Source: a virus
Virus record (IMG/VR): IMGVR_UViG_3300046007_008124
Coordinates: 28,078 to 92,077 of that record
Reading direction: 5' to 3' (one strand)
Length of the DNA stretch: 64,000 bases
Below the pieces are notes generated by a model. The model was given only the letters and a program-made list of their open reading frames with translations. It was not told the DNA's origin and did not search any database. Of this stretch, positions 2,929 to 29,165 are shown in pieces (the first letter of the stretch is position 1; the number at the start of each line of letters is the position of its first letter). The position numbers and the translations under genes were made by a program.

Positions 2929-5900
2929 ATGGCAGATAAAAGAATAACCGACTTACCTTTAATATTATCTGGTGATATATCAACACAAGATGTATTACCA
3001 ATAGTAGATGTCAATCTAGACATTACAAATAAAATTGAGGTAGATCAATTAAAATCATATATATTAACAGGTGTTAATGATTATTATGTTACTGGTGGTA
3101 CCTATTCTAATGGAACAATAACATTAGGGAGACAAAATGGTTCTTTATCAATTAGCGGTTTATACACTGGATCAACAGATGTTTTTGTAACTGGTGGTAC
3201 CTATGATAACACAACTGGAACATTAACTTTAAAAGATAATAACGGAACGTCATTTGGTGTAACTGGATTTACAACTGGTGGTACTGGGACTTCTTTATAT
3301 GAAGTTGGTTCTGGAACTGACTCAACACAAAGGGTTGGTGTTAATAATGTTGCAATCGGTAATTGTTCTGCTGTTTTAGCTGGATCCGGAAACACTGTAA
3401 TATCAGAATTTTCTTTTATTGGTGGAGGTTATAATAATACTGCTGGTTTTAGTGGTGGTGTTAATTTTGTTTATAATGAAACATTTACAGGTAATATACC
3501 TTCATCAGGATTTTACGGTTCAATTCCACCATCATCAACACTTTCCGGTCTTGGTTCTGGTTCAACTTTTTCATTTTATTTTTCAACTCAAACAACTTTA
3601 AGTAATGTTTATGTTGACAATCAAGGTAGTGGATATGTTAGTGGTGATACATTAACATTTAACGGTTCAAATTTTGGTGGTGTAACACCTGCCGATAATG
3701 TTACAGTTCAAATCAACACATTAGGTGGTTCAAACATCGTTATTGGTGGTGGTCAAGGAAATACTGCAAATAGAGACTCATCAACAATTAGTGGTGGTTA
3801 TATAAATAAAAGTAACGCAAACTGCTCAACAATCGGTGGTGGTTGTCGTAACATTATTTCAAATGATTCTTGTTACTCAACAATTAGTGGTGGTAGAAGA
3901 AATACCGGATACGGTTGTTACGGAGTAATTAGTGGTGGTCGTTGTAATGAAACTGGTGCTTATGGTACAATAACTGGAACATTTAATCAAGTGTATACCG
4001 GTGGTACTTTAAATGGAACTTTTTCTGGTGGTTATAACCCAACATCAACGACATCTGGTTATGGATTTGATGCTTCTTTTGGTTTTGTTTTTAATTTTGG
4101 TACTTTATCTAGTGTTAATATTCTTGGTGGTGGTAATCGATATATTGGAAATGATACTTTATTTTTTAATGGTAATATATTTCCTGGTGGAACAACTGGT
4201 ATTGATGATGTAACATTTCAAGTTAGTACATCAATAAATAACTATGCAACAGTAGCTGGTGGATGTTGTAATACTGCATCTGGTGAATACTCAACAATTA
4301 GTGGTGGGTATGAAAATACAGTATCCGGTGATTATTCAACTATTGGTGGGGGTTCTTGTAACACAATTAATACTAATTCGTGCTATTCAACTATTGGTGG
4401 TGGTGATGATAATACTATCCTTCAAGGTGATGTTGCAACAATCAGTGGTGGTGAAAATAATACGATAAGTGGTGCTTATTCATTTATTGGTGGTGGTTAT
4501 AATAATATAATAACAAGTTCTGATGCAACAATTGGTGGTGGTTGTAATAACACTGCAAGTGGTTACAAATCATTTATTGGTGGTGGAGAAAATAACGTTT
4601 CTGGACGAAATAATTTTGTTAGTGGAATAAATAGTTCTGTATATACTGGTGGTACTTTAAATAATACTTACGGTGGTATCTCACCAACATCAACATCAAG
4701 TGGTACTGGATCTGGGGTATTATTTAGTTTTGATTTTGTTCTTGGTGTATTACAAACCATCCAAATACAAAACGGAGGTTCTGGTTATTCTAATGGTGAA
4801 ACACTATATTTTAACGGTGGATTATTTGGTGGTGGTTCATCTCCTTTAGATGATGTTTGGTTAAACATCCAAACAGAAAATAGCACACATACAACCGTAA
4901 GTGGCGGCTATTGTAACACATCAAGTGGGGATTACTCAACCGTAAGTGGTGGATATAGAAACACATCAAGTTGTTATAGTTCAACAGTAAGTGGAGGTAT
5001 TAATAACAAATCAAGTGGTAATTCTTCAACCGTAGGAGGTGGTCTTGAAAATACATCAAGTTGTTGTTATTCAACAGTAAGTGGGGGACGTAGAAATACA
5101 TCAAGTGGTTATCATTCAACCGTAAGTGGTGGATACCGTAATACATCAAGTGGTCAATATTCAACCGTAAGTGGCGGACAATTTAACACATCAAGTGGTA
5201 ATTATTCATTTGTTGGTGGTGGACAATGTAACGCGTCAAACTCTATTAACTCAACCGTAAGTGGTGGATTTTGTAATACAACAAGTGGAACTTACTCAAC
5301 AATAGGTGGAGGTAATAATAATAAGTCTAGTGGTGGTTATTCAACACTAAGTGGTGGTCAAAATAATGTTGCCGGTGGTACACATTCATTTATTGGTAGT
5401 GGTTTTGGTAACGTTTCAGGTGTTAATGGATTTGTTACTGGTGTTACAGGTTTTGTATATACTGGAGGAACATTTAATAGTACATTCACCGGTGTTAGTC
5501 CAACTTCAACAAGTAGTGGATTAGGATCCAATGCGTTTTTTAACTTTAGTTTCCTTGGTGGTGTATTACAAAGTGTTACAGTACAATCAGCAGGATCTGA
5601 TTATGTAAACGGAGATATACTATATTTTAATGCCGCTTCATTTTTTAGTACATCACCTCTTAATGATGTTTGGATAACAATATCAAGTGCTAGTAATTCA
5701 TTTACAACAGTAGTTGGTGGTAGTCAAAACACATCAAGTGGATATCTATCAATTGTTGGTGCTGGTTATCAAAATACATCAAGTGGTTGTTATTCATTTA
5801 TTGGTGGTGGATGGTGTAACACAACGGTAGGTGATTGCTCAATGATACTTGGTGGTTATGCAAATAAATCTATCGGTACAAGAAGTGCTGTTGTGGGTGG

Positions 5901-6087
5901 TCAGAATATTGTAGCAACAGAAGATGATATGACATATATGCCAAGTGCGAACATCCAATCAACCGGATATATTTATTTTGGAGACGTTAACACAAATGGT
6001 TCTTGGAGAATGAGTATATCTGGCGCAACATTTATAATTGAAAAAAGAGTCGGAGGTGTTTGGGTTGTGTCCGGAACATTCGTATAA
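2929..6087 (+). CDS. Tail fibre/adhesin paralog 1 (15-aa STVSGGxxNTSS beta-roll repeats plus four diverged plug-in domains)
   Basis: N-terminal MADKRITDLP...DVLPIVD motif typical of phage fibre proteins; LYEVGSGTDSTQR motif; dozens of SxISGGxxN repeats. Confidence 0.7.
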   Translation: MADKRITDLPLILSGDISTQDVLPIVDVNLDITNKIEVDQLKSYILTGVNDYYVTGGTYSNGTITLGRQNGSLSISGLYTGSTDVFVTGGTYDNTTGTLTLKDNNGTSFGVTGFTTGGTGTSLYEVGSGTDSTQRVGVNNVAIGNCSAVLAGSGNTVISEFSFIGGGYNNTAGFSGGVNFVYNETFTGNIPSSGFYGSIPPSSTLSGLGSGSTFSFYFSTQTTLSNVYVDNQGSGYVSGDTLTFNGSNFGGVTPADNVTVQINTLGGSNIVIGGGQGNTANRDSSTISGGYINKSNANCSTIGGGCRNIISNDSCYSTISGGRRNTGYGCYGVISGGRCNETGAYGTITGTFNQVYTGGTLNGTFSGGYNPTSTTSGYGFDASFGFVFNFGTLSSVNILGGGNRYIGNDTLFFNGNIFPGGTTGIDDVTFQVSTSINNYATVAGGCCNTASGEYSTISGGYENTVSGDYSTIGGGSCNTINTNSCYSTIGGGDDNTILQGDVATISGGENNTISGAYSFIGGGYNNIITSSDATIGGGCNNTASGYKSFIGGGENNVSGRNNFVSGINSSVYTGGTLNNTYGGISPTSTSSGTGSGVLFSFDFVLGVLQTIQIQNGGSGYSNGETLYFNGGLFGGGSSPLDDVWLNIQTENSTHTTVSGGYCNTSSGDYSTVSGGYRNTSSCYSSTVSGGINNKSSGNSSTVGGGLENTSSCCYSTVSGGRRNTSSGYHSTVSGGYRNTSSGQYSTVSGGQFNTSSGNYSFVGGGQCNASNSINSTVSGGFCNTTSGTYSTIGGGNNNKSSGGYSTLSGGQNNVAGGTHSFIGSGFGNVSGVNGFVTGVTGFVYTGGTFNSTFTGVSPTSTSSGLGSNAFFNFSFLGGVLQSVTVQSAGSDYVNGDILYFNAASFFSTSPLNDVWITISSASNSFTTVVGGSQNTSSGYLSIVGAGYQNTSSGCYSFIGGGWCNTTVGDCSMILGGYANKSIGTRSAVVGGQNIVATEDDMTYMPSANIQSTGYIYFGDVNTNGSWRMSISGATFIIEKRVGGVWVVSGTFV
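4888..5360 (+). repeat. 45-nt coding tandem repeat (consensus TCAACCGTAAGTGGTGG-N7-AACACATCAAGTGG-N7), representative array
   Basis: Visible directly. The same unit recurs at about 7040-9520, 23930-25960 and 26480-28700. Confidence 0.9.
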
Positions 6088-6112: not shown

Positions 6113-9100
6113 ATGGGATTTAATACAGACATATTAAGTGCAACAACAATAAGTGGTGGAACATTCTATGGTGATGGTTCCGGATTAGTTGATAACACAA
6201 TTACCGAAATTATAAATTCACCAACACAGAATCCACTTAATGTTAACACAAGTAATGATTATTTACCAATTACTGGTAATGACCAATATCAAGATGAAGC
6301 AAGTAACTATATTTCTTGGACAAATGGGTCAAATAATGGGACAGGATTTAATCCTTGGACCATAACTACACAACCAAATACTGGTGTGTTTTTAGGTAAT
6401 CCAGCGTCGGATGGTATGGGAACCGCCGGTATTGGAACAAACGCATTTGCTCTTTTTGCAACTGACGGATCAAATTATGTATCAACATCAAGAACATTTA
6501 CATCTGGAATGAATGTTGGTGATGTATTTAGTTTTTATTGGGCGATAAATTTTGACGCAAATGGTGGTAATAAAGGTTTTGATTTAAAAGCTGGTGGTAC
6601 AACAATTTTTAATGCTAATAATAATAATTCTGCAACAATAACATCAAACTTATCTTCACCTAATAACATTATTGATAGTGGTTATGGTACAACACCAATG
6701 TTAGTTACTCTAACTAGAACAAGTGATATTCTTTATAATATAACAATAACATCTAGAAGTGGTGGACCAACTTATTCTGCATCAATAAATTCACCATTGG
6801 TTGTCAATGAAATTAATTTTTATTGTGGTGCTCAAGGTGATGGTTTAGGACAAAGGAATTTATTTTTTAATCAACTTTTAATTACAAAAACAACAGAGTT
6901 ATTAAAAATAACAGTTGATGATTTGGGAAGTTTGTTTGGTGGTGGGTCTTTATATGAAGTTGGTTCCGGTACAGACTCAACACAAAGATGTGGTGTTAAT
7001 AATGTTGCTAGTGGCAATTGTTCTATTGTTGCAGGTGGTGATTATAACACATCATTATCACCTTCTTCAGTTATAAGTGGTGGTAAATGTAATACAGCAG
7101 ACTGTAATTTTTCAACCGTAAGTGGTGGTTATTCTAATAAAACTTATGGTGGTTGTTCATTTGTAGGTGGCGGTGTTCGTAACACAGCAAGTAATAACTT
7201 TTCAATAGTTGGTGGTGGTTGTATCAACACATCAAGTGGTAACTACTCAACAATAAGTGGTGGTCGTCAAAATACATCAAGTGATTATTATTCAACCGTA
7301 AGTGGCGGTCGTCAAAATACATCAAGTAGTTGTTATTCAACTATAAGTGGTGGTCGTCAAAATACATCAAGTAGTTGTTATTCAACTATAAGTGGTGGTT
7401 ATCGTAATGTTTCAGGAATAAACGGAACCGTAAGTGGTGTTTACAATCAAACATATTTAGGTAGCACATTAAATGGAACATTTAATTCAATATCTCCATC
7501 ATCAACATCTTCTGGTTATGGTAATGGTGCAATATTTAATTTTGTTTTTAACACCGGAAGTTTATCTACTGTTACTCTTGTAACAATTGGTTCTGGATAT
7601 GTAAACGGAAATTTATTAACCTTTGACGGAACTTTATTTGGTGGATCAAGTGGAACCGACGATGTTACATTAAATATTAATACACAAAACATAGGAAATA
7701 GTTCAACCGTAAGTGGAGGTCGTGGTAACACATCAATTGGTGGATATTCAACCGTAAGTGGGGGTGTTGGTAACACATCAAGTGCGTGTTATTCAACAAT
7801 AAGTGGTGGAGTAAATAACACATCAAGTTGTAATTATTCATTTGTTGGTGGAGGTCGCCAAAACACATCAAGTGGTGACCTTTCAACGATTGCCGGTGGT
7901 CTTCAAAACGCATCAAGTTGTAAATATTCAACCGTAAGTGGTGGTGCTTTTAATACATCAAGTAGTGATAATTCATTTATTGGTGGTGGACTTAGAAATA
8001 CAACAAGTGGACAATATTCAACTATAAGTGGTGGTTATTGTAATGTTTCAGGAATAAATGGAATCGTAAGTAGTTTTTCTAATCAAACATATTTAGGAAG
8101 TACATTAAATGGAACATTTAATTCAATATCTCCATCATCAACATCTTCTGGTTATGGTAATGGTGCAACATTTAATTTTGTGTTTAACACAGGGAGTTTA
8201 TCTACTGTTACTCTTGTAACAATTGGTTCTGGATATGTAAATGGAGATTTATTAACCTTTGACGGAACTTTATTTGGCGGATCAAGTGGAACCGATGATG
8301 TCACTTTAACTATTAACACATCAACAATAGGAAATTGCTCAACCGTAAGTGGAGGTCGTGGTAACACATCAAGTGGAGATATATCAACCGTTGGTGGTGG
8401 TCGTTTTAACACATCAAGTGGAGATATATCAACCGTAAGTGGTGGTTGGCAAAACACGTCAAGTGGATATAACTCAACAATAAGTGGGGGATATTGTAAT
8501 ACATCAAGTGGATATAACTCAACCGTAAGTGGGGGATGTTGTAATACATCAAATGGTTGTGGATCATTTATTGGTGGTGGACGAAATAACACAATAAATT
8601 GTTTTTTTAATACAATTGGTGGTGGTCAAAATAACACATCAATTGGACAACAGTCTATAATTGGTGGTGGTTCTAGTAATGTGGCATTTGGTAGTGCTTC
8701 ATTTATCGGTGGTGGTAGTCAAAACACATCAAATGGCGGTGGGTCAACTATTAGTGGTGGAGTCGCTAACACATCAAGTGGTGATTCTTCAACCGTAAGT
8801 GGTGGTCGTTTTAACACATCAATTGGCTGTTGCTCAACCGTAAGTGGTGGTTATTGTAATGTTTCAGGAATAAATGGAACCGTAAGTGGATTGTATAATC
8901 AAACATATTTAGGAAGCACATTAAATGGAACATTTAATTCAATATCTCCATCATCAACATCTTCTGGTTATGGTAATGGTGCAACATTTAATTTTTTGTT
9001 TAACACAGGAAGTTTATCTACTGTTACTCTTGTAACAATTGGTTCTGGATATGTAAACGGTGATCAATTATTATTTGATGGTACTTTATTTGGTGGATCA

Positions 9101-9706
9101 AGTGGAACCGATGATGTTACTTTAAATATTAATACACAAACAATAGGAAATTGCTCAACAATAGGTGGAGGTCACCAAAACACATCAAACGGAAATTCTT
9201 CAACAGTAAGTGGTGGTTATAGAAACACATCAAGTGGTAATTACTCAACCGTAAGTGGTGGAGTAAATAACACATCAAGTGGAGATATATCAACCGTAAG
9301 TGGTGGAGTAAATAACACATCAAGTTGTAATTATTCATTTGTTGGTGGAGGTTATAATAACACATCAAGTGGTCAATATTCAACAATAAGTGGTGGAGGT
9401 TGTAACACATCAAGTAGTGATAATTCATTTATTGGTGGTGGACTTAGAAATACAACAAGTGGACAATATTCAACTATAAGTGGTGGATATCGTAACACGT
9501 CAATAAATGTTTATTCGGCAATACTTGGAGGACAAAGTAATACATCCCAACACGATTGTTCATTTATTGTTGGTAGCGGAATTTTTAGTACAGCGGCAAA
9601 CACAACACACGTAAATTGTTTACACTTTAGTAATATACCAACAAGTTCAGCGGGTCTTGCTCCAGGAACAGTATGGAATAATGGTGGTGTATTAAACATA
9701 GCATAA
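6113..9706 (+). CDS. Tail fibre/adhesin paralog 2 with N-terminal lectin-like insert and three near-identical 97-aa domains
   Basis: Same repeat family and LYEVGSGTDSTQR motif. C-terminal NIPTSSAGLAPGTVWNNGGVLNI resembles common phage fibre tips. Confidence 0.7.
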   Translation: MGFNTDILSATTISGGTFYGDGSGLVDNTITEIINSPTQNPLNVNTSNDYLPITGNDQYQDEASNYISWTNGSNNGTGFNPWTITTQPNTGVFLGNPASDGMGTAGIGTNAFALFATDGSNYVSTSRTFTSGMNVGDVFSFYWAINFDANGGNKGFDLKAGGTTIFNANNNNSATITSNLSSPNNIIDSGYGTTPMLVTLTRTSDILYNITITSRSGGPTYSASINSPLVVNEINFYCGAQGDGLGQRNLFFNQLLITKTTELLKITVDDLGSLFGGGSLYEVGSGTDSTQRCGVNNVASGNCSIVAGGDYNTSLSPSSVISGGKCNTADCNFSTVSGGYSNKTYGGCSFVGGGVRNTASNNFSIVGGGCINTSSGNYSTISGGRQNTSSDYYSTVSGGRQNTSSSCYSTISGGRQNTSSSCYSTISGGYRNVSGINGTVSGVYNQTYLGSTLNGTFNSISPSSTSSGYGNGAIFNFVFNTGSLSTVTLVTIGSGYVNGNLLTFDGTLFGGSSGTDDVTLNINTQNIGNSSTVSGGRGNTSIGGYSTVSGGVGNTSSACYSTISGGVNNTSSCNYSFVGGGRQNTSSGDLSTIAGGLQNASSCKYSTVSGGAFNTSSSDNSFIGGGLRNTTSGQYSTISGGYCNVSGINGIVSSFSNQTYLGSTLNGTFNSISPSSTSSGYGNGATFNFVFNTGSLSTVTLVTIGSGYVNGDLLTFDGTLFGGSSGTDDVTLTINTSTIGNCSTVSGGRGNTSSGDISTVGGGRFNTSSGDISTVSGGWQNTSSGYNSTISGGYCNTSSGYNSTVSGGCCNTSNGCGSFIGGGRNNTINCFFNTIGGGQNNTSIGQQSIIGGGSSNVAFGSASFIGGGSQNTSNGGGSTISGGVANTSSGDSSTVSGGRFNTSIGCCSTVSGGYCNVSGINGTVSGLYNQTYLGSTLNGTFNSISPSSTSSGYGNGATFNFLFNTGSLSTVTLVTIGSGYVNGDQLLFDGTLFGGSSGTDDVTLNINTQTIGNCSTIGGGHQNTSNGNSSTVSGGYRNTSSGNYSTVSGGVNNTSSGDISTVSGGVNNTSSCNYSFVGGGYNNTSSGQYSTISGGGCNTSSSDNSFIGGGLRNTTSGQYSTISGGYRNTSINVYSAILGGQSNTSQHDCSFIVGSGIFSTAANTTHVNCLHFSNIPTSSAGLAPGTVWNNGGVLNIA
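7406..7696 (+). repeat. 291-bp dispersed repeat, copy 1 (others at 8042-8332, 8858-9148, 28017-28307)
   Basis: Near-identical blocks starting AATGTTTCAGGAATAAA, encoding NVSGINGTVSG...SISPSSTSSGYGNGA...GGSSGTDDVTLNINTQ. Confidence 0.92.
8042..8332 (+). repeat. 291-bp dispersed repeat, copy 2
   Basis: Aligns by eye, without gaps, to 7406-7696. Confidence 0.9.
8858..9148 (+). repeat. 291-bp dispersed repeat, copy 3
   Basis: Aligns by eye, without gaps, to 7406-7696. Confidence 0.9.
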
Positions 9707-9723
9707 AATTAAATAAATTTAAA

Positions 9724-10245
9724 ATGAAAAAAGTATTTAAAGATTTTTTAAACAAGTATTATAAAGAAAGTTTAGTCAGAAAAAAAGATAAAAATCAAAA
9801 AGATTTTGGGTCAAAAGTTAATGATTGTATAGTACAAGTCTACAATAAAAATTCTGATAAACAAATAACAAGTAAGGACGTTATTTTACCGTCAGGTTGT
9901 TACTCAATGATGTTAGAAACTGAAGATGAAAATGTATTTACAAAATGTTTGTCTATTTTACCAAATATGAACGATATAATTGTGAGTCAAATTAAAACTT
10001 GTATAAAAGGTCAAAACGTTACTTGTGTTAAAGGTGTTGGTTTTACAATAGAAAAAGCTGGTGATATAATATATACGGATTGTTGTGGTCAAACTAATGC
10101 AAATTTTTACAATGAAAATAAATATTTTCTTGATGTTTGTATAAAGAGTGGTTCACTTTTACCTTATGATAAAAAGGGTAAACCGGCTAGCATTATTAAA
10201 ATAGAATATGAAAATCAAAAATGTATTTGTGATAGTAAACAATAA
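9724..10245 (+). CDS. Hypothetical Cys-rich protein
   Basis: 173-aa ORF in line with its neighbours. The YTDCCG motif resembles YIDCNG in the 16654 protein. Confidence 0.6.
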   Translation: MKKVFKDFLNKYYKESLVRKKDKNQKDFGSKVNDCIVQVYNKNSDKQITSKDVILPSGCYSMMLETEDENVFTKCLSILPNMNDIIVSQIKTCIKGQNVTCVKGVGFTIEKAGDIIYTDCCGQTNANFYNENKYFLDVCIKSGSLLPYDKKGKPASIIKIEYENQKCICDSKQ

Positions 10246-10451: not shown

Positions 10452-10481
10452 AAAACCCCACCTTTAAAAGTGGGGTTTTTT
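10452..10481 (+). terminator. Intrinsic terminator
   Basis: AAAACCCCAC-loop-GTGGGGTTTT hairpin running into a T-tract. Confidence 0.85.
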
Positions 10482-10516
10482 ATACACTTTTTTGTTACAA
10501 ATAATATAATTGTATT

Positions 10517-11257
10517 ATGTTTGTAACAGTATGTAATAAAGAATACCTCATAGGATTTGAGGTAATGTTAAAATCTTTAATAGATAATAATCCAAGAGTT
10601 GTTACTGATAATTTACCATTTGTAATTATTACAAACGATTTAAACCCTGAAGATTTAGTCACCTCAAGAACAATTTATAATAATATACATATAAAAAGAT
10701 TTGACGAATCAAAATATTCACAAATAGAGGAATTAAAAAAACAACAAATGGCATTTGGTGATTATACCAAATATGAAATTTTTTCTTTGACCGAATTTAA
10801 AAAAATTATATTTTTAGACTCCGATACAATAATATTAGGAAACATTGATTACCTTATTGATTTTAAAGAACCATTTGGTTGTGTGAGAGAATTATTTATT
10901 GATCAATATAACACCGGTGTTATGGTAATCGAAAATAAATATTTAAATCCAAAAATTACAGAAGATTTAATCAATCTAACAAACATTTATGGTATTACAG
11001 AACATTTAGATCAGGACATAATAAATAATTATTTTATTGATGTTATCACGCCAATTCCATTGGAATACAACTATCTTAAAATATATTCAAAACAAATTTT
11101 TCAAAACACCGGACTTCCGGAGTATATTAAAATAATTCATTATGTTGTTAAAAAACCTTGGCAACAAAAACCATTGGTAATATTAGAAGAAGGAACACTA
11201 TGGACCGAAAGATATTGGTTTGAGTATTATTCAAAAGTACTAAAGTTAAAAATATAA
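10517..11257 (+). CDS. Glycosyltransferase family 8 (glycogenin/LgtC-like)
   Basis: IIFLDSDT (DxD), YNTGVMVI, DQDIIN and IIHYVVKKPW are classic GT8 motifs. Confidence 0.85.
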   Translation: MFVTVCNKEYLIGFEVMLKSLIDNNPRVVTDNLPFVIITNDLNPEDLVTSRTIYNNIHIKRFDESKYSQIEELKKQQMAFGDYTKYEIFSLTEFKKIIFLDSDTIILGNIDYLIDFKEPFGCVRELFIDQYNTGVMVIENKYLNPKITEDLINLTNIYGITEHLDQDIINNYFIDVITPIPLEYNYLKIYSKQIFQNTGLPEYIKIIHYVVKKPWQQKPLVILEEGTLWTERYWFEYYSKVLKLKI

Positions 11258-12165
11258 TGGTTAAAAGACATTACGGACAACACGAGCTATTGGAGTATGT
11301 TGAATTAGATAAAGACGCTCAAACATTAGAAGGAAAAGTAATTTTAATGCACTTTGATTCTTTTTGTCTTGGCGATACAATTTGTTTTTCCTCTTTTATT
11401 GACGCTTTTCTTGATTATCACAAACCAAAAAAAGTAATTATCTCAACATTTTTTATACACTTATTCAAATCAACGGATGAAAGATATGAATTTATTAACG
11501 CAAATCAAAAATTAAAATTAACTGTTGATAAATTAATTGATGTTGGTTACGATAAAAATAGTTTAGAAGATACAAAAGGTGGTATGATGTGGGCAACAAA
11601 AAGAACAATGATGTTACCACAAGAAACAAAACCTAGAAAATGTCCGGTTATTCCATATGAAAGAAAAATAATCCCAAATAAAATAACAATTGCACCAGAG
11701 TCATTAAAAAAAATTGCTCAGTGGAACCATTTTGGAAATTACGGTTGGCAATCATTGGTAAATGAAATTGTAAATTCTGGATTTGTGGTTTCAAATGTTT
11801 CATACGAAAATACAATGAATTTACAAAATGTAACTGGTTTTCACGGTCACGATGATATTAGGGTTGCATTAAATGAAATTTTATCATCACGAGTATTTGT
11901 GGGATTATCTTCTGGACTTGCTTGGCTTGCTTGGGCTTACGGTGTTCCGGTTGTTATGATTTCTGGCTTTACAAAAGAACATAATGAATTTAATTGTTAT
12001 AGAGTTACAAATAAACTTTCTTGTAATGGTTGTTTTAATTTATTTCAAAATATACAATCAACTTGTCCTTTATTTTTGGGTACCGATAGAGAAAATGAGT
12101 GTCATAAATCAATTACACCACAAATGGTTATTGACAAAATAAACGAAGCTCTTAAATTTAATTAA
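11257..12165 (+). CDS. Aah/TibC-like (autotransporter O-heptosyltransferase family) GT-B protein
   Basis: LGDTI catalytic-loop motif; FVGLSSGLAWLAWAYGVPVVMISGFT; C-terminal four-Cys iron-finger pattern CNGCFN...CP...ECHKSITPQMV. Confidence 0.75.
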   Translation: MVKRHYGQHELLEYVELDKDAQTLEGKVILMHFDSFCLGDTICFSSFIDAFLDYHKPKKVIISTFFIHLFKSTDERYEFINANQKLKLTVDKLIDVGYDKNSLEDTKGGMMWATKRTMMLPQETKPRKCPVIPYERKIIPNKITIAPESLKKIAQWNHFGNYGWQSLVNEIVNSGFVVSNVSYENTMNLQNVTGFHGHDDIRVALNEILSSRVFVGLSSGLAWLAWAYGVPVVMISGFTKEHNEFNCYRVTNKLSCNGCFNLFQNIQSTCPLFLGTDRENECHKSITPQMVIDKINEALKFN

Positions 12166-12170
12166 AAATT

Positions 12171-13055
12171 ATGGAAAAAAAATATAGTGTATTTCACATA
12201 GAGGGTGGTCTTGGTAAACATGTTTTAGCAACAGCAGTTGCAAGATGTATTAAAAATAATCATCCGGATAGAGAACTAATTGTTGTTTGTGCTTATCCAG
12301 AAATTTATCTTAATTTAGATTTTGTTAATCGTGTGTATAGATTAGGTAACACACCTTATTTTTATGACGATTATATAAATGAAAAAGATAGTTTAATTTT
12401 CAAACACGAACCGTACTTTACTGAAGATCATATTCATAAAAAATTATCATTAATCCAAAACTGGTGTAAATTATTTAACCTTGAGTATAGTAATGAAAAA
12501 CCAGAACTTGTTTTTAATTTAAGACAACAACAAATTGGTATTAATAAATGGCAAAGACAAAGACCAATTATGGTTATTCAAACAAACGGTGGACCATTAA
12601 ATGACCAACCGTATCCGTATTCTTGGACAAGAGATATACCTATGGACACTGCTCAACAAATTGTAAATTCATTTAAAGACTATTATCATATAATTCAAAT
12701 TTGTAGACACGAATCAAATGCTCTTCAAGGTGTTGAGGTAATTAAAGAACCGATGTCAAATATGGAATTATTTTCACTTCTTTTATTTTCACAAAAAAGA
12801 TTGTTAATTGATTCTTGTTTACAACATGCCGCAGCAGCGCTTGGTTTACAATCAACAGTTCTTTGGGTTGGTACATCACCAAAAGTATTTGGTTATAATT
12901 TACATAATAATATTGTAGCACAACTACCAAACACAGTCAAACTTCCGGATAGTTATTTATTTGACTATAACTTTAATGGAATGGTTCACGAATGTCCGTT
13001 ATTTGACACAAACATCTTTAACATAAACGAAATAATAGAATCACTAAAAAATTAA
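12171..13055 (+). CDS. GT9-like (ADP-heptose transferase superfamily) glycosyltransferase
   Basis: N-terminal IEGGLGK; C-terminal IDSCLQHAAAALGLQSTVLW matches the GT9 DSxxxHxAAALGxP pattern. Confidence 0.65.
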   Translation: MEKKYSVFHIEGGLGKHVLATAVARCIKNNHPDRELIVVCAYPEIYLNLDFVNRVYRLGNTPYFYDDYINEKDSLIFKHEPYFTEDHIHKKLSLIQNWCKLFNLEYSNEKPELVFNLRQQQIGINKWQRQRPIMVIQTNGGPLNDQPYPYSWTRDIPMDTAQQIVNSFKDYYHIIQICRHESNALQGVEVIKEPMSNMELFSLLLFSQKRLLIDSCLQHAAAALGLQSTVLWVGTSPKVFGYNLHNNIVAQLPNTVKLPDSYLFDYNFNGMVHECPLFDTNIFNINEIIESLKN

Positions 13056-13056: not shown

Positions 13057-13875
13057 ATGGTACAAAAAATTTTCTTTCAAAGCTCACTACCTAGAGCAGG
13101 GTCTACATTACTACAAAATGTAATGGGTCAAAATCCAGATTTTTACGTTACACCAACATCAGGTGTATTAGAACTTGTATATGCCGCAAGAGCAAATTAC
13201 ACTTCATCACCAGAATTTAAAGCACAAGATACTCAACTAATGAGAGAAGGGTTTTTAAATTTTTGTAATCAAGGTGTTCAAGGTTTTTTTAATGCTGTAA
13301 CGGATAAACCCTATGTTTTAGATAAAAGTAGGGGTTGGGGTGTTCATTACGGATTTTTAAATTCATTTTATCCTAACCCAAAAGTAATTTGTATGGTTAG
13401 AGATTTAAGAGGAATTTTTGCATCTATGGAAAAAAACTTTAGAAAAAATCAACATATGGATTCTGGAATTGTAAATCACGCACAAATGCAAGGAACAACA
13501 ACAGAAAAAAGAATTGATATTTGGGCACAGTCACAACCGGTAGGATTAGCAATAGAAAGGTTACATCAAATTTTTAAAGAAGGTAACAATCAAAAAATGT
13601 TATTTGTTAAGTTTGAGGATTTTTCATCAAACCCAAAAAAAGAAATGGAACGTATCTATCAATACTTGGAATTACCTTATTATGAACATGATTTTAATAA
13701 TGTTCAACAAATTACACAAGAAGATGACAGTGTGTATGGAATTTATGGTGACCATAAAATAAAAAGTAAAATAGAACCATTAAAACCAGATTATAAAGAA
13801 GTTTTGGGTGTTAACGCATCTAACTGGGTTAAATCTAATTATCAATGGTTTTATGATCAATTTGGATATTTTTGA
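13057..13875 (+). CDS. PAPS-dependent sulfotransferase
   Basis: 5'-PSB loop SLPRAGSTLL, 3'-PB motif MVRDLRGIFAS, and VKFEDFSSNPKKEMERIYQYL. Confidence 0.85.
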   Translation: MVQKIFFQSSLPRAGSTLLQNVMGQNPDFYVTPTSGVLELVYAARANYTSSPEFKAQDTQLMREGFLNFCNQGVQGFFNAVTDKPYVLDKSRGWGVHYGFLNSFYPNPKVICMVRDLRGIFASMEKNFRKNQHMDSGIVNHAQMQGTTTEKRIDIWAQSQPVGLAIERLHQIFKEGNNQKMLFVKFEDFSSNPKKEMERIYQYLELPYYEHDFNNVQQITQEDDSVYGIYGDHKIKSKIEPLKPDYKEVLGVNASNWVKSNYQWFYDQFGYF

Positions 13876-13878: not shown

Positions 13879-14334
13879 ATGAAAGAGAAAAAAATATATT
13901 GGTTTACCGGACAACCTGGTGCTGGAAAAACGGTGTTATCTTTAAGATTAAAAAAGTATTTAGAACAAGAATATGGACAAGAAGTATTCCATATTGATGG
14001 TGATGAGTTAAGAGTTTTATTTAAAAACATAAACTACGGTAGAGAAGGTCGTGAGGAAAATATAAAAAGAGCTCAAGATATTGCAAAATTTATTCACTCA
14101 CAAGGTTATGATGTAATTGTTAGTTTAGTTGCACCATATAAAGAAATGAGGGAAAGTTTTAAGTATGATTTAAAAAATTTACTAGTTGAGTTTTATGTTC
14201 ACACAACAGACATTAGAGGTAGAGAACATTTTCACACGGATGAATATGAAGGTCCTACAGAAAATTTTGTAGATATTGATACAACAAATGTTGATCCACA
14301 AATATCATTAAACGAAATAATCAAACACATATGA
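13879..14334 (+). CDS. cysC: Adenylyl-sulfate (APS) kinase
   Basis: WFTGQPGAGKT P-loop, IDGDELR, GREENIKR and VSLVAPY. Confidence 0.88.
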   Translation: MKEKKIYWFTGQPGAGKTVLSLRLKKYLEQEYGQEVFHIDGDELRVLFKNINYGREGREENIKRAQDIAKFIHSQGYDVIVSLVAPYKEMRESFKYDLKNLLVEFYVHTTDIRGREHFHTDEYEGPTENFVDIDTTNVDPQISLNEIIKHI

Positions 14335-14783
14335 GTTGGGAAAAGAAAAATTATGGGGGGGATCCAACAACAAATGAAAGTAAAAAATATGCAATTTTTA
14401 TTGGCCGTTATCAACCACCACATTTTGGGCATTTAGAGTTATTTGAACAAAAACTAAAACAAGGAGTTCCAATTTTAATTATGGTTAGGGATATTGAACC
14501 AGATGAAAAAAATCCTTTTACAACAGAGCAAACAGTGTTTTTATTGGAAAAATATTTTTCAAATAAAAAATTAGATGTTAAGGTTATGGTTATTCCTGAT
14601 ATTGAGTCGGTAAATTTTGGTCGTGGTGTTGGTTATGAGGTTAATGAATTTATACCACCAAAAGACATTGGTGGGATTTCAGCAACTGGAATTAGAAATT
14701 CCATTAAAAATAAAGATGATTATTGGAAAAAAATGATAGACGAATCAATCCAAAACGATATTTTTAATTTTTTGACTAATTAA
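14331..14783 (+). CDS. HxGH (cytidylyltransferase-like) nucleotidyltransferase
   Basis: FIGRYQPPHFGH and ISATGIR motifs; start overlaps the cysC stop (ATGA). Confidence 0.8.
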   Translation: MSWEKKNYGGDPTTNESKKYAIFIGRYQPPHFGHLELFEQKLKQGVPILIMVRDIEPDEKNPFTTEQTVFLLEKYFSNKKLDVKVMVIPDIESVNFGRGVGYEVNEFIPPKDIGGISATGIRNSIKNKDDYWKKMIDESIQNDIFNFLTN

Positions 14784-16192: not shown

Positions 16193-16612
16193 ATGAGTCA
16201 AAGTATTACAATAAATAGTGTTTTATATGATGGTGAGTTAGCAAGTATATTATTCAAACCAGACAATTCTGACGATGTAATTAATCTTGGTCTTGTTGAG
16301 TTACCTTTTACATTTTATCCTAATTTATTAAGTCCACCAAGAGAAGTATATGGTAGTTATACAATTTTGGTTCAAGGTTCAAGTTGTTCAAAAACATTAA
16401 ATGTTCCAAGACCAACACCTACACCTACACCAACAGTTACTCCTACAAGGACCCAAACACCAACACCCACACCAACTAATACACCAACACCATCTTTTGA
16501 TCCGTGTAAAGTACCAACACCAACACCAACTAATACACCAACACCAACTAATACACCAACAGTAACACCAACACCAACAGTTTCTTGTACAAATCCATGT
16601 GGTTGTTTTTAA
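16193..16612 (+). CDS. Small Pro/Thr-rich (mucin-like stalk) putative virion protein
   Basis: Long (PT)n tracts; TATTTAT motif upstream. Confidence 0.65.
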
Positions 16613-23696: not shown

Positions 23697-26123
23697 ATGG
23701 CAAATTTACCAATATCAGTATTACCTAATGTAAATGCAAGTGGTGTTACACAAAATGACTTACTTGTTATTGTAAACTATGATGTATTAACTGGGAACAC
23801 AAAAAACATAACAGCATTAGATTTTAAAACTTATATAAATTCCGGATCAACACAATTATATGAAGTTGGTTCTGGTACAGACTCAACACAAAGAATTGGT
23901 GTTAACGCAAATGCTATTGGTGATTACTCTGTTGTTAGTGGTGGACAAAACAATTTTGCAAATAGTGGTTACACTTTTGTTGGTGGTGGTTTAAATAATA
24001 CAGCATCTGGCGAATATTCAACAATTGGTGGTGGAGCTTTTAACACATCAGATGGTGTTTATTCAACAGTAGGTGGTGGAACAAATAACATATCAATTGG
24101 GCCTACATCATTTATTGGTGGCGGACAACAAAATACATCAAGTGGGGATAATTCAACAGTAAGCGGTGGGTACAAAAACACATCAAGTTGTAATGGTTCA
24201 ACCGTAAGTGGGGGTATTCAAAATACATCAAGTGGACAATACTCAACAGTAAGTGGTGGTCGTGGTAATACACCAAATGGATTTGCATCAACCATTAGTG
24301 GAGGTTTTAGTAATACATCAAGTGCGTACTATTCTTTTGTTGGTGGTGGGTGTGCAAATACTATTGACAGCATCATCGCTTCAAGTAGTTATTCTGTCTT
24401 TGGTTCAACAATCGGTGGAGGTTCTTATAACACAATATCATCTTATAGTAGTTGCTACGATTCATATGGTAATACAATTGCTGGAGGAACTTGTAACACA
24501 ACAGTTTCATCATATTATAATGGACAAACAATTGGTGGGGGTGTATGTAATGTAACCTCCAATGATTTTTCAACAGTAAGTGGGGGTTATCTTAACACAT
24601 CAAGTGGTTCTGTTTCAACCGTAAGTGGTGGACTTAGAAACACATCAAACGGAAATTCTTCAACTATAAGTGGTGGTCAGTGTAACACATCAAGTGATTG
24701 TAACTCAACCGTAAGTGGCGGTTTTGCCAACACGGCTTCAAATAGTTATTCAACAGTAGGTGGTGGTGGTCAAAATAGGTCAATCGGATGTTCATCAACA
24801 GTAAGTGGTGGACTACAAAATACTGCAAGTTGTAGTTCTTCAACCGTAAGTGGTGGTCGTTTAAACACATCAAGTGGTCAATATTCATTTATTGGTGGTG
24901 GATCTGGTAATACAGCATTTAATCTTTATTCAACAGTTGTTGGTGGTAGAGAAAATACATCAAGTGATGATTACTCATTTATTGGTGGTGGTTGTGGTAA
25001 TAAATCAATTGGTTGTTATTCAACCGTAAGTGGTGGTTTGCTTAACACATCAAGTAGTTCTTGTTCATTTGTTGGTGGTGGTCAGACAAACACAACAATT
25101 GGTGGTGTATCGTTTATTGGTAGTGGAAGTCAAAATACTTCATCTGGATGTAATTCAGTTGTCACTGGTGGGTTCTGTAATAGAACAATAGGTGTATGTA
25201 ACTTCATTGGTGGTGGACAATCAAATATAACATCAGGTAGTACATCAACAGTAGTCGGCGGCCTTGAAAATAATTCAATAAACAATATGACATTTGTTGG
25301 TGGAGGTTTTCAAAATACATCAAGTGGAGTTTATTCAACAATTGGTGGTGGTCGTCAAAATACATCAAGTGGTTGTTATTCAACAATTGGTGGTGGTTAT
25401 AAAAACACAACAAATAATAATTCAGTAACTGTAAGTGGTGGAGTACGTAACACATCAAGTGGTTATAGCTCAACAATTAGTGGGGGGCAACGTAATACTA
25501 GTTCAGCCTATGGTTCATTTGTTGGTGGAGGTAGACTTAACGTTAGTGCAAACTCATCTTCAGTTGTTACTGGAGGTGATTCAAATACCGCTTTAGATTT
25601 TTACTCATCAATTAATGGTGGAAATCAAAACACAACAAATGGTTTTGCCTCAACTATTGGTGGTGGTTGGAAAAATACGTCTAACGGTATTTGTTCTGTT
25701 ATTGGTGGTGGTTCATTTAATATTTCTAGTACAGATTTTTCAGCAATACTTGGTGGATCTGGAAACACAGCAAATGGTGCTTGTAGTTTTATTGGTGGAG
25801 GTCTTAATAATGTAACAAACGATAAAGCAATTGTTATTGGTGGTGGTAGAGCTAATCAAGTTACTGCACCATGTTCTGTAATTTTAGGTGGGCAAAATAA
25901 TTCAATTTGTACAATTTATTCTGGTATATTGGGTGGGTGCGGAAACTCTGTTGGTCACAACTGTTCATTTATTGTTGGTCATGGTATATCAACATCATGC
26001 CCAAATACAACATATGTCAATTGTTTAAATATTGTAAGTTTACCAACAGAAGCAAGTTTACCTCTCCCAACAGGAACATTATATAGATGTACATCGGATA
26101 ATTCAATTTATTCGGTACCATAA
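23697..26123 (+). CDS. Tail fibre/adhesin paralog 3
   Basis: MANLPISVLP N-terminus, LYEVGSGTDSTQR, long uninterrupted run of 15-aa repeats. Confidence 0.7.
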   Translation: MANLPISVLPNVNASGVTQNDLLVIVNYDVLTGNTKNITALDFKTYINSGSTQLYEVGSGTDSTQRIGVNANAIGDYSVVSGGQNNFANSGYTFVGGGLNNTASGEYSTIGGGAFNTSDGVYSTVGGGTNNISIGPTSFIGGGQQNTSSGDNSTVSGGYKNTSSCNGSTVSGGIQNTSSGQYSTVSGGRGNTPNGFASTISGGFSNTSSAYYSFVGGGCANTIDSIIASSSYSVFGSTIGGGSYNTISSYSSCYDSYGNTIAGGTCNTTVSSYYNGQTIGGGVCNVTSNDFSTVSGGYLNTSSGSVSTVSGGLRNTSNGNSSTISGGQCNTSSDCNSTVSGGFANTASNSYSTVGGGGQNRSIGCSSTVSGGLQNTASCSSSTVSGGRLNTSSGQYSFIGGGSGNTAFNLYSTVVGGRENTSSDDYSFIGGGCGNKSIGCYSTVSGGLLNTSSSSCSFVGGGQTNTTIGGVSFIGSGSQNTSSGCNSVVTGGFCNRTIGVCNFIGGGQSNITSGSTSTVVGGLENNSINNMTFVGGGFQNTSSGVYSTIGGGRQNTSSGCYSTIGGGYKNTTNNNSVTVSGGVRNTSSGYSSTISGGQRNTSSAYGSFVGGGRLNVSANSSSVVTGGDSNTALDFYSSINGGNQNTTNGFASTIGGGWKNTSNGICSVIGGGSFNISSTDFSAILGGSGNTANGACSFIGGGLNNVTNDKAIVIGGGRANQVTAPCSVILGGQNNSICTIYSGILGGCGNSVGHNCSFIVGHGISTSCPNTTYVNCLNIVSLPTEASLPLPTGTLYRCTSDNSIYSVP

Positions 26124-26159: not shown

Positions 26160-29100
26160 ATGGCAAATAAAAGAATATCACAATTACCTTATGTAGGAAA
26201 CACTGGTTATACATCAAATGATATAATGCCAATTGTAAATTATGATGTATCAAGTGGTACAACAAAAAATACACCTCTTGTTGATTTAAAAGCTTATATT
26301 TTAAGTGGTTCAACAGATTATTATGTAACAGGTGGAACTTATTCTGGTGGAACATTAGTTTTGGATAGACAAAATGGTTCAGTAACAATAAATGGTTTTA
26401 CAACTGGAACAACATTATATGAAGTTGGTTCTGGAGTTGACTCAACACAAAGAATAGGTGTTAATAATGATGCAAGTGGGGATTACTCAACCGTAAGTGG
26501 TGGTCGTCAAAACACATCAAGTGGTTATTATTCTTTTATTGGTGGTGGACAACAAAATCTAATAACAGGATATACAGCAACAATAAGTGGTGGGTATTTA
26601 AACACATCAAGTGGTTGTTATTCATTTATTGGTGGAGGAGTTGCTAATAATGTAACAAATATTAAATCGACCGTAGGTGGTGGTGGTTGTAATACCTCAA
26701 GTGGTTATTATTCAACCATAAGTGGTGGAAGATTAAATAAATCAAGTAATTGTGGATCAACAGTAAGCGGTGGAGGACGTAACACATCAAGTAATTATAA
26801 TTCAACCGTAAGTGGTGGTTATTGTAACACATCAAGTGGGGATAATTCAACCGTAAGTGGTGGACGTAGTAACACAGCAAGTAATTATAATTCAACTGTA
26901 AGTGGTGGTTATAGTAACACATCAAGTGGTTACGCCTCATTTGTTGGTGGTGGAGTAAATAACACATCAAGTGGTGATTGCTCAACCGTAGGTGGAGGTC
27001 GTAATAACACGTCAAATGGACCTGGAAACTTTATTGGTGGTGGACTTGCTAACTTTACCGACAATAAATTTTCAACTGTAAGTAGTGGATATCGTAACAC
27101 ATCAAGTGGTGGATATGCAACAGTAGGTGGGGGTTTTTGTAACACATCAAATGGTGATTTTTCTGTAATTGGTGGTGGTCGTGAAAACACATCACAAAAT
27201 GATTTTGCGTCAGTTTTTGCTGGATCTGGTAATACAGCATCAGGGTACTATAGTATTATTGGTAGTGGTATCAAAAATACAAATAATAGTGATCTTGGTT
27301 TTCTTGGTGGTGGTTTTTGTAATACATCAAGTGGTTACGATGGAGTACTTGGTGGTGGTGGATGTAATACATTAAATAATTTACTTGGTGGTGTAATTGC
27401 CGGTGGTAGATTAAATACTGTTGTTGGTATCGCCCCAAATACAATTGGGGGTGGTTTTGGAAATAATATATTTGCTTTTGGTCCATCAACAATTAGTGGT
27501 GGATACTTAAACACAACAAGAAGTGACTACTCTACAGTAGGTGGTGGTTCATTAAATACAATAGATTCAATAACAACACAATCTGGTTATTATGTCTTTG
27601 GTTCATCAATAGGTGGGGGTTCTTGTAATACAATATCATCTTATAGTGCATCTTATGATTCTTTTGGTAATACAATTGCCGGAGGAACTTGTAATGTAAC
27701 TGTATCATCATATAGCAATGGTCAAACAATTGGTGGAGGATATCGTAATACAACATTGTGTGATTACGCAACCGTAAGTGGTGGTTATCGTAACACATCA
27801 AGCGGTAATATCTCAACCGTAAGTGGAGGTATTAATAACGCATCAAGCGGTAATATCTCAACCGTAAGTGGCGGTCGTTGTAACACATCAAGTGGTAATT
27901 CTTCAACCGTAAGTGGTGGTCGTAATAACACATCAAGTGGGGATTACTCAACCGTAAGTGGTGGTTATCGTAACACATCAAGCGGAAGTGGTTCATTTAT
28001 TGGTGGGGGAGAAAATAATGTTTCAGGAATAAATGGAACCGTAAGTGGTGTTTATAATCAAACATACACTGGTGGAACTTTAAATGGAACATTTAATTCA
28101 ATATCTCCATCATCAACATCTTCTGGTTATGGTAATGGTGCAACATTTAATTTTGTTTTTAACACAGGAATTTTAACTACTGTTAATCTTGTAACAATTG
28201 GTTCTGGATATGTAAACGGAGATTTGTTAACATTTGATGGAACTTTATTTGGTGGATCAAGTGGAACCGATGATGTTACTTTAAATATTAATACACAAAC
28301 AATTGGACCATTCTCAACTGTAAGTGGTGGTGTTAATAACACATCAAGTGGTAAATATTCAACCGTAAGTGGTGGAGTAAATAACACATCAAGTGGTGAT
28401 AATTCATTTATTGGCGGTGGTGTATGTAATACATCAATTGGTGCCGCTTCATTTATTGGTGGTGGCGTTCGAAACACATCAAGTGGTCAATATTCATTTA
28501 TTGGTGGTGGACTTAGAAACACATCAAACGGAAATTCTTCAACAATAAGTGGTGGATATCGTAACACATCAAGTGGTATATATTCATTTATTGGTACCGG
28601 AGAATGTAACACTATTGATTCTGCTTATTCAGTTGTAAACGGCGGAGTAAATAATACTTCACTTAATATATATAATAGTATATTAGGTGGTTCCGGAAAT
28701 ACAATAAATCACGACTTCTCAAGTGCCGTTGGTAAAGATGTCACGTCAGTTTCAGCTTGTACATTCCACGTAAATTATTTGGCGTTACAAAATACGCCAG
28801 AAACAGATAGTACTAATAACAATTTCTTGGTTAGAGACACATCAACAGGTATTTTAAAAACAAGAGATATTTCTCAATCAGCAAACTACTCAACAAGTGC
28901 TATAACATCCTCACAAACCTTAACTTGGGATAAAGTATATTGGGGTGTTAGTGGATCATCAAATGTTGATTTAACATTACCAACAACAACGTCAAAAGAT
29001 GGTTACTTTTTAATAATTAAAGACGAATCCGGAACCTCCGGATCTTTTAGAATAAGATTAACACCGGCATCGGGTTTGATTGATGGGAATTCATACGTTG

Positions 29101-29165
29101 ATATGAATATAAACTATATGTCTCTTACCATTATGGTGAGAAACGGAAATTGGTATTTAATTTAA
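26160..29165 (+). CDS. Tail fibre/adhesin paralog 4
   Basis: MANKRISQLP N-terminus, 15-aa repeats, one 97-aa plug-in domain, C-terminal LTLP...IIKDE...GNWYLI domain. Confidence 0.7.
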   Translation: MANKRISQLPYVGNTGYTSNDIMPIVNYDVSSGTTKNTPLVDLKAYILSGSTDYYVTGGTYSGGTLVLDRQNGSVTINGFTTGTTLYEVGSGVDSTQRIGVNNDASGDYSTVSGGRQNTSSGYYSFIGGGQQNLITGYTATISGGYLNTSSGCYSFIGGGVANNVTNIKSTVGGGGCNTSSGYYSTISGGRLNKSSNCGSTVSGGGRNTSSNYNSTVSGGYCNTSSGDNSTVSGGRSNTASNYNSTVSGGYSNTSSGYASFVGGGVNNTSSGDCSTVGGGRNNTSNGPGNFIGGGLANFTDNKFSTVSSGYRNTSSGGYATVGGGFCNTSNGDFSVIGGGRENTSQNDFASVFAGSGNTASGYYSIIGSGIKNTNNSDLGFLGGGFCNTSSGYDGVLGGGGCNTLNNLLGGVIAGGRLNTVVGIAPNTIGGGFGNNIFAFGPSTISGGYLNTTRSDYSTVGGGSLNTIDSITTQSGYYVFGSSIGGGSCNTISSYSASYDSFGNTIAGGTCNVTVSSYSNGQTIGGGYRNTTLCDYATVSGGYRNTSSGNISTVSGGINNASSGNISTVSGGRCNTSSGNSSTVSGGRNNTSSGDYSTVSGGYRNTSSGSGSFIGGGENNVSGINGTVSGVYNQTYTGGTLNGTFNSISPSSTSSGYGNGATFNFVFNTGILTTVNLVTIGSGYVNGDLLTFDGTLFGGSSGTDDVTLNINTQTIGPFSTVSGGVNNTSSGKYSTVSGGVNNTSSGDNSFIGGGVCNTSIGAASFIGGGVRNTSSGQYSFIGGGLRNTSNGNSSTISGGYRNTSSGIYSFIGTGECNTIDSAYSVVNGGVNNTSLNIYNSILGGSGNTINHDFSSAVGKDVTSVSACTFHVNYLALQNTPETDSTNNNFLVRDTSTGILKTRDISQSANYSTSAITSSQTLTWDKVYWGVSGSSNVDLTLPTTTSKDGYFLIIKDESGTSGSFRIRLTPASGLIDGNSYVDMNINYMSLTIMVRNGNWYLI
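28017..28307 (+). repeat. 291-bp dispersed repeat, copy 4
   Basis: Near-identical to the copies about 20 kb upstream in the 6113 gene. Confidence 0.9.

Follow-up and report, generated by a model that had tools for sequence, protein, structure and literature searches.

The subject of this analysis is a gene for a short glycosyltransferase of the TibC/Aah type, together with the fibre and glycosylation genes among which it lies, within a stretch of 64,000 nucleotides (the window) that corresponds to bases 28078–92077 of a 92-kb IMG/VR virus record, IMGVR_UViG_3300046007_008124, for which CheckV estimates a completeness of 31%. The window encodes a 1121-residue tail sheath, a baseplate hub, a family-B DNA polymerase and an SNF2 helicase, and the presence of the tail sheath and baseplate hub genes identifies the source, a large uncultured lake phage, as a jumbo myovirus of ∼300 kb and ∼30% G+C, of which the record is a fragment; a giant eukaryotic virus was rejected as the source on account of the same two genes. 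Related contigs extend up to 290–322 kb, with estimated completeness of 97–100%. No tRNA genes were found within the window, and no nucleotide-level relatives were found among deposited phages. The gene of interest, referred to here as P0001, is located as follows.

11257..12165, + strand: P0001, short TibC/BAHT-like GT-B glycosyltransferase of 302 residues (sequence, profile and fold matches)

An earlier note on this DNA, made from the sequence, had drawn attention to the motifs LGDT, GLSSGLAWLAW and VPVVMISGF and to four cysteines in this region, and had read the gene as encoding an Aah/TibC-like heptosyltransferase that is shorter at the N-terminus than the bacterial enzymes. All of these motifs were located in the 302-residue open reading frame (ORF), at residues 38–41, 216–226 and 230–238 and at Cys 256, 259, 270 and 282, respectively, and only 23 residues precede the catalytic domain. 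Since the reading frame is closed 11 codons upstream of the start, and the start overlaps the stop codon of the preceding GT8 gene in the sequence TAATG, the short N-terminus is real. A phmmer search against PDB sequences returned TibC (4rap) as the sole match to P0001 (E = 1.1e-16), with residues 24–297 of the query aligned to residues 94–385 of TibC. Similarly, the NCBIfam profile TIGR04414 (autotransporter strand-loop-strand O-heptosyltransferase) was matched with an E-value of 8.6e-36 over profile positions 77–373 of 374, although the score of 123.7 bits falls below the equivalog cut-off of 200 bits. An AlphaFold2 model of P0001, built from 56 homologues, has a mean predicted local distance difference test score (pLDDT) of 94.6, and a Foldseek search with this model ranked TibC chains first (E = 1.7e-19; query TM-score, TMq, of 0.75–0.80), above the GT9 heptosyltransferases of lipopolysaccharide (LPS) synthesis. 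Superposition of the model on TibC with VIA-align, a comparison that the earlier note had proposed, gave a Z-score of 27.6 and a root-mean-square deviation of 2.6 Å over 286 residues, with 24% identity, compared with a Z-score of 20.2 for the best GT9 enzyme. Taken together, the sequence matches and the predicted fold indicate that P0001 is a true homologue of the TibC/Aah (BAHT) family, with similarity far beyond chance, and bear out the family assignment in the note. P0001 is, however, a member of a structurally distinct BAHT subfamily, a phage-borne structural variant as opposed to a TibC orthologue.

The nature of this variant becomes apparent when P0001 is measured against the functional residues of TibC. 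In the latter enzyme, D110 is the catalytic base, T226 and K230 contact the β-phosphate, R286 contacts adenine, W305 contacts the O4 of heptose, and P300, which is Ser in Aah, is a determinant of stereoselectivity (PMC4358343). The TibC iron finger is formed by C339, C342, C358 and C370, residues 1–97 form a β-barrel, and a thumb carries F265 and V266; deletion of the N-terminal 80 or 95 residues, mutation of the thumb or the substitution K230A each abolish activity (PMC4358343). Conservation at the equivalent positions was assessed in 120 members of the P0001 clade, extending down to 56% identity, and in 135 more distant representatives of the family. D40 of P0001 aligns with D110 and is retained in 118 of the 120 clade members, the other two having gaps, and in 133 of the 135 representatives. 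W223 is the equivalent of W305 and is invariant in the clade, as is the W232 position, while the P300 position is occupied by Ser, as in Aah. C256, C259, C270 and C282 align exactly with the four cysteines of the iron finger, as the earlier note had supposed, and are invariant in all 120 clade members, forming a putative iron finger. The D110, W305 and four-Cys positions are also nearly invariant among the 135 distant representatives. Conversely, the T226 position is Leu or Ile in the P0001 clade, whereas Thr is kept in 113 of the 135 other representatives, and the K230 position is Ala or Ser, whereas Lys is kept in 128. Lys is instead found at TibC position 227, in all 120 clade members, and K151, W156 and W223 are among the invariant residues carried by P0001 itself. 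The R286 position is likewise Ala or Ser in the clade, but since Arg is present in only 39 of the 135 representatives this residue does not define the wider family. The invariance of D110, W232, W305, the four cysteines and Lys 227 across 120 diverged members argues for a maintained active site.

In addition to these substitutions, parts of the TibC structure are missing. The N-terminal β-barrel is absent from P0001, being shown as deleted in the alignment with Aah-type enzymes, and one vestigial strand is all that is kept of TibC residues 1–97. The region of the thumb is shortened by 8 residues, with no hairpin in residues 181–192 of the AlphaFold2 model; the loop between the second and third cysteines is 5 residues shorter than in TibC. 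Because both barrel and thumb are absent, formation of a dodecameric ring is unlikely, and P0001 is probably a monomer or dimer instead.

The enzyme gene is accompanied by genes for repetitive proteins, four of which were recognised as fibres:

2929..6087, + strand: fibre with 15-residue β-roll repeats, 12 [VI]SGG units and inserts of ∼107 residues (repeat count, Pfam)
6113..9706, + strand: fibre with 15-residue β-roll repeats, 24 [VI]SGG units (repeat count)
23697..26123, + strand: fibre with 15-residue β-roll repeats, 14 [VI]SGG units, homologue of the UspA1 head (repeat count, match to 3pr7)
26160..29165, + strand: fibre with 15-residue β-roll repeats, 16 [VI]SGG units (repeat count)

These four proteins contain 66 [VI]SGG sequences in total, 63 of them T[VI]SGG, compared with none in the 29 other ORFs checked, in agreement with the description of the neighbouring fibres in the note as rich in TVSGG and TISGG units. 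The consensus of the repeat is Y-S-T-[VI]-[SG]-G-G-x-x-N-T-S-S-G-x, successive units being spaced 15 residues apart in 106 pairs, and the residue before GG among 142 units is Ser (67), Gly (63), Ala (7) or Val (5). The protein encoded at 23697–26123 matched the head of UspA1 (3pr7) with an E-value of 1.3e-18, UspA1 having YSTIGGG at the same place, and Pfam analysis of the fibres detected the β-roll family PF21300 (E = 1.1e-9). No C-terminal autotransporter membrane anchor or translocator was detected by Pfam in any of the four proteins. Judged by these matches, the fibres are homologues of the head β-roll of trimeric autotransporters as opposed to the β-helix of AIDA-I and TibA. Since the head of UspA1 has Gly at the relevant position, Ser before GG is optional for the fold. 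An AIDA-I that is encoded beside a bona fide BAHT contains 32 SGG sequences in the pattern [VI]-x-S-G-G; AIDA-like fibres were rejected, given that the best solved relative is the UspA1 head, that the period is 15 and not 19, and that the register of SGG differs. A recurring insert of ∼107 residues (GINGTVSG...NSISPSSTSSGYGNG...TLFGGSSGTDDVTL) interrupts the β-rolls, occurring three times in the protein encoded at 6113–9706 and also in those encoded at 2929–6087 and 26160–29165.

The earlier proposal of a phage version of the Aah/TibC enzyme–adhesin pair consequently survives in part: the enzyme is of the TibC family and its gene is adjacent to fibre genes, but the fibres have a UspA1-type β-roll and not the β-helix of AIDA-I and TibA. 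A similar qualification applies to the likeness between the SGG sequences. Mapped heptosylation sites in TibA include the Ser of QNSGGAV and that of TNTSAAV (PMC4358343), and comparison of the sequences reveals that these sites resemble the VSGG and NTSSG turns of the phage fibres, but Ser precedes GG in only about half of the 142 phage units.

P0001 occupies the second place in a compact block of six genes, in the order GT8, P0001, P0003, sulfotransferase, adenosine 5′-phosphosulfate (APS) kinase and a nucleotidyltransferase resembling nicotinamide mononucleotide (NMN) adenylyltransferase (NMNAT). The other elements of this cassette are as follows:

10452..10510, + strand: GC-rich hairpin and T run (terminator-like), then TATACA-N18-TATAAT before the GT8 start (consensus matches only)
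10517..11257, + strand: GT8 glycosyltransferase (GT-A, DxD; PF01501, E = 5e-22; syntenic in all short-form loci)
12171..13055, + strand: P0003, second GT9-fold glycosyltransferase, 294 residues (model and profile–profile match)
13057..13875, + strand: sulfotransferase (PF13469, E = 1.5e-21; PF00685, E = 1.7e-13)
13879..14334, + strand: short APS kinase (PF01583, E = 2.5e-20; NCBIfam apsK)
14331..14783, + strand: NMNAT-like nucleotidyltransferase, 150 residues, not an HldE/RfaE domain II equivalog (Pfam/NCBIfam)

The terminator-like hairpin and promoter-like site that precede the GT8 start suggest that the cassette is a transcription unit of its own, directly after the fibre genes. The AlphaFold2 model of P0003 (pLDDT 86.9) had as its top Foldseek matches the GT9 structure 3tov, WaaC, WaaF and TibC, with E-values of 2.5e-10 to 1e-7, and hhalign comparison of the P0003 and P0001 family profiles gave a probability of 90% (E = 1.4e-6). 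P0003 has no Pfam match and no four-cysteine finger, and has LGK in place of the catalytic LGD. The P0003 family is the larger of the two, comprising 3790 proteins at E ≤ 1e-3, and a P0003-type gene accompanies the sulfotransferase even where there is no short TibC-like gene (loci L058, L102 and L108). An ADP-heptose nucleotidyltransferase of the HldE/RfaE type was considered for the last gene of the block but is unsupported, the best matches being NMN adenylyltransferases, with no match to rfaE_dom_II.

A gene at 9724–10245, after the last of the upstream fibre genes and before the cassette, encodes a Cys-rich protein of 173 residues without a family match, which may be a candidate fibre assembly factor; locus L010 has an ORF of similar size at this position. 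Further downstream, the region 16193–23190 encodes small Pro-Thr-rich proteins with TPTPT tracts, a DUF285 protein, a PF11397 GlcNAc-transferase-like enzyme and an HtrL/YibB-like protein. This region is putatively a second glycosylation unit, and is also found in genomes of the lineage without a TibC-like gene. A separate observation concerns a 699-residue protein encoded at 35625–37724 on the − strand, which contains a complete Fe/Mn superoxide dismutase (residues 167–356) between flanks without a family match.

Next, the distribution of related enzymes was considered. The short form is abundant in metagenomes, where 858 close proteins of ∼300 residues were found at E ≤ 1e-5, named by JGI (Joint Genome Institute) after TIGR04414. 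The wider family comprises 986 representatives (50% clustering, E ≤ 1e-3), and most of these matches lie within multidomain proteins of 600–2000 residues. Among deposited phage records, just four contain a relative, one of them being that of Microcystis phage Mel-JY01, and no paper on a BAHT enzyme from a phage was found in the literature searched. In Mel-JY01, a cultured cyanophage (L049, 4750–8430), the TibC-like domain ends a protein of 1226 residues that is annotated only as an FkbM methyltransferase; the gene adjoins one annotated as encoding a structural protein, making this a tractable phage in which to test for virion glycosylation.

Synteny of the cassette extends to at least 11 related contigs of jumbo phages. 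The order GT8, TibC-like, GT9-like and sulfotransferase, with APS kinase and nucleotidyltransferase in addition, is kept in ten IMG/VR loci (L002–L011), in which the enzymes are 61–89% identical, and the cassette is found also in a 304-kb genome (G017) and in L050, lying directly downstream of variable fibre genes. More distant short forms in IMG/VR were less informative, the context of one (P0130) coming from a single informative locus (L107) and that of another (P0131) from none.

A long form of the enzyme was also identified, in which a GT4 domain and a TibC-type barrel precede the TibC-like domain; some cases, such as L100, include an FkbM methyltransferase as well. In both loci inspected (G015 and G018), the long form is directly beside proteins with Pfam Collagen repeats (GTS/GTN triplets), and in two other phage lineages (L012–L015) the same GT4–barrel–TibC fusion is found beside collagen-like proteins. 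These collagen-repeat neighbours extend to 3313 residues (Pfam Collagen, E = 0), and the long form is encoded at L100:12542–15460 (− strand), L101:8066–10276 (+ strand), L102:7154–9277 (+ strand), L012:8615–10834 and L014:8768–10864. In G021 and L108, the long form is near a module of GT9-like, sulfotransferase and APS kinase genes and a β-roll fibre.

The lineage was surveyed by way of a protein that heads the fibre island and has a papain-like domain, which yielded 50 loci (L050–L099), and 18 whole records were searched. A TibC-like gene is present in all four of the records that encode this type of β-roll fibre; five further records have a TibC-like gene without such fibres, and in all five it is the long form, while nine have neither, including four of 89–100% completeness as estimated by CheckV. 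The protein used for the survey, encoded at 3–2897 in the window, is conserved, carries its papain-like peptidase domain at the C-terminus and heads a hypervariable island in the window and in L050–L099. In genomes of 260–320 kb this island shuffles fibre types (β-roll, collagen-like, NIALG-type and SHSEG-type), Pro-Thr-rich and DUF285 proteins, and sets of glycosyltransferases.

The fraction of fibre units with Ser before GG was also compared between genomes. This fraction is 0.18–0.56 in 11 contigs with the short form, compared with 0.05 in G021, which is 100% complete and has only the long form, 0.13 in G024, 0.11 in G010, and 0.00 in G005, which is 72% complete and in which no TibC-like gene was found. 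In a comparison based on the island-head protein, G021 and G024 proved no more distant from the window phage than the genomes with the short form. The higher frequency of Ser where the short form is present is suggestive only, since these genomes share ancestry and are not independent samples, and several of the contigs are incomplete.

From these observations we infer an activity, an acceptor, a donor, an order of steps and an oligomeric state for P0001. The protein is most likely a minimal, active representative of the TibC/Aah (BAHT) branch within the GT9-type GT-B glycosyltransferases, judging from its conserved residues, and O-glycosylation of the phage's own fibres is considered the best reading of its function, to which somewhat better than even confidence is attached. 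Late in infection, in the host cytoplasm, P0001 would start the O-glycosylation of Ser in the turns of the β-roll fibres, the candidate acceptor sites being Ser in ST(V/I)-S-GG and perhaps also the NTSSG turn. The donor would probably be ADP-heptose from the host. The sugar would then be extended by the neighbouring GT9-like and GT8 enzymes, and the extended sugar sulfated by the sulfotransferase, fed by the phage APS kinase, with P0001 acting as a monomer or dimer and not in a dodecameric ring of the TibC type. This donor is favoured by the invariant W305, the Aah-like Ser and the use of ADP-heptose by all the structural neighbours, with caution called for by the changed T226, K230 and R286 positions. 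The strongest indirect support for modification of fibres is that TibC-like modules accompany fibrous proteins in several independent gene orders. A more tentative extension, for which confidence is low, is that jumbo phages have adopted the glycosylation principle of autotransporters and that two specialised forms of the enzyme are matched to two types of fibre, the minimal, ring-less short form with its relocated Lys to trimeric β-roll fibres and the GT4–barrel–TibC fusion to collagen-like ones, and that the product is a coat of heptose O-glycans, extended by GT9 and GT8 enzymes and sulfated from 3′-phosphoadenosine 5′-phosphosulfate (PAPS) made by the phage.

A number of observations weigh against fibre O-heptosylation by P0001. 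In the phage [VI]-S-G-G, the register is shifted by one residue relative to the [VI]-x-S-G-G of AIDA-I. T226, K230 and R286 are not conserved in place in the P0001 clade, which renders ADP-heptose uncertain as the donor, and with residues that contact phosphate and adenine changed in this way, P0001 could feasibly be an active fibre O-glycosyltransferase that employs some other nucleotide sugar, a possibility that is doubtful but deserves consideration. Genes of the heptose pathway were indeed not found in the partial genomes: gmhA was absent from the five that were searched, in which a single, weak rfaE-II-like match was found, elsewhere in G004, and the nucleotidyltransferase adjacent to the cassette enzymes is NMNAT-like and not HldE-like. 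However, the five genomes are at most 51% complete, so that the missing gmhA is uninformative. Moreover, the residue that contacts the heptose O4, W305, is invariant, the P300 position shares its Ser with Aah, every one of the nearest structural neighbours is an ADP-heptose enzyme, and Lys 227, being three residues before position 230 (approximately one turn if the segment is helical), could reach the β-phosphate.

The P0001 clade is also naturally devoid of the barrel, the thumb and K230, each of which is needed for TibC activity, and T226 is missing as well, which might indicate a non-catalytic protein that binds fibres as a chaperone, assembly or targeting factor, gripping the β-roll with its four-cysteine finger. 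There is a precedent in BimC, which is reported to bind iron and BimA and to lack the transferase activity predicted for it (PMC6439308). Such a role is nevertheless improbable for P0001, given that the Asp of LGD, W305, W232 and the relocated Lys are invariant in 120 diverged clade members, and that the gene is always found among glycosyltransferase and sulfotransferase genes and not among assembly genes. Alternatively, P0001 could be active towards an acceptor other than the SGG fibres, such as another virion protein, whether a Pro-Thr-rich protein or a fibre of another type, a host surface protein or a host envelope glycan (LPS core), and might serve in superinfection exclusion or receptor masking. 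The combination of GT9 and GT8 is the classic one of LPS-core enzymes, so that the set of two GT9 enzymes and a GT8 would resemble one for core-oligosaccharide synthesis, and P0003 is closest to GT9 enzymes of the LPS type. A promoter of its own seems to serve the cassette, following the terminator-like hairpin, and fibre islands are hot spots for accessory genes. In L004, L005 and L011, furthermore, the intact cassette adjoins a NIALG-type fibre without VSGG and is followed by a giant SHSEG-repeat protein, the β-roll fibres being ∼70 kb away in that genome. On the other hand, all characterised BAHTs with a four-cysteine finger act on or bind repetitive β-solenoid proteins and not lipid-linked glycans, TibC-like modules adjoin fibrous proteins in independent gene orders, as noted above, and β-roll fibres were found in all short-form contigs examined for fibres; the Pro-Thr-rich proteins are disfavoured as acceptors by their presence in many genomes without a TibC-like gene. 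An acceptor other than the fibres is accordingly regarded as unlikely. Finally, L108 has the long form and yet a Ser-before-GG fraction of 0.31, so that the association of Ser with the short form is not exclusive. An obligatory one-to-one pairing of the enzyme with VSGG fibres was rejected on account of L108, the adjacent fibre in L004, L005 and L011, and the five long-form genomes without such fibres.

To our knowledge, the only proteins known to be O-heptosylated by BAHT enzymes are virulence autotransporters of Proteobacteria, for which the reaction depends on a ring of 12 subunits. Should P0001 prove active, the ring would not be essential to BAHT chemistry, and a minimal enzyme would be at hand for study and for glyco-engineering of β-solenoid proteins. 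If fibre glycosylation by P0001 is correct, then virion glycosylation would extend from the capsid and tail-tube proteins of mycobacteriophages to the receptor-binding fibres of environmental jumbo phages, with effects on host recognition, protease resistance and the surface charge of the particle, above all should the glycan carry sulfate. Testable predictions on acceptor recognition follow from the recurrent association of each enzyme form with a type of fibre.

Comparison with known systems places P0001 among several partial parallels. With the GT9 enzymes WaaC and WaaF it shares the GT-B fold (Z-scores of 18–20) and the catalytic Asp, although it is P0003 that resembles these enzymes most; WaaC and WaaF have no four-cysteine finger, use a lipid-linked acceptor and are 12–15% identical to P0001. 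Glycosyltransferases of mycobacteriophages decorate the C-termini of capsid and tail-tube subunits of their own virions (Freeman et al. 2023, cited in PMC12619734), and the likeness to that system lies in the phage origin of the enzymes and in the use, proposed in the present case, of the phage's own virion proteins as acceptors. The mycobacteriophage enzymes belong to different families, and no BAHT-type enzyme, sulfation or fibre-repeat acceptor figures in it.

Burkholderia BimC is a BAHT homologue that is encoded beside, and binds, the autotransporter BimA, and is reported to bind iron and to lack transferase activity (PMC6439308). In the phage clade, by comparison, both the catalytic Asp and the Trp of the donor site are invariant. 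BimA is a trimeric autotransporter, and would show that the BAHT family pairs with that class of protein. As for the fibres themselves, these share with the YadA-like head of Moraxella catarrhalis UspA1 the YSTIGGG..N.A.G β-roll with a period of 14–15 residues, but differ in having the N-termini of phage fibres, inserts of ∼107 residues and no Pfam anchor, in the replacement of the first Gly by Ser in roughly half of their repeats, and in having NTSSG for N-x-A-x-G.

The closest parallel is with TibC and Aah (TIGR04414; PDB 4rap and 4rb4), with which P0001 shares the GT-B fold, the Asp of LGD, W232, W305 and the four cysteines, as well as a gene position next to genes whose products are repetitive solenoid surface proteins, rich in Ser and Gly and with S-G-G turns, although in L004, L005 and L011 the adjacent fibre is of another type. 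It departs from these enzymes in lacking the barrel and thumb, in the replacement of T226 and K230, with Lys at 227 instead, and in its sub-cut-off score, and also in being encoded by a phage, among GT8, GT9-like and sulfotransferase genes, with a fibre in place of a secreted autotransporter as its partner.

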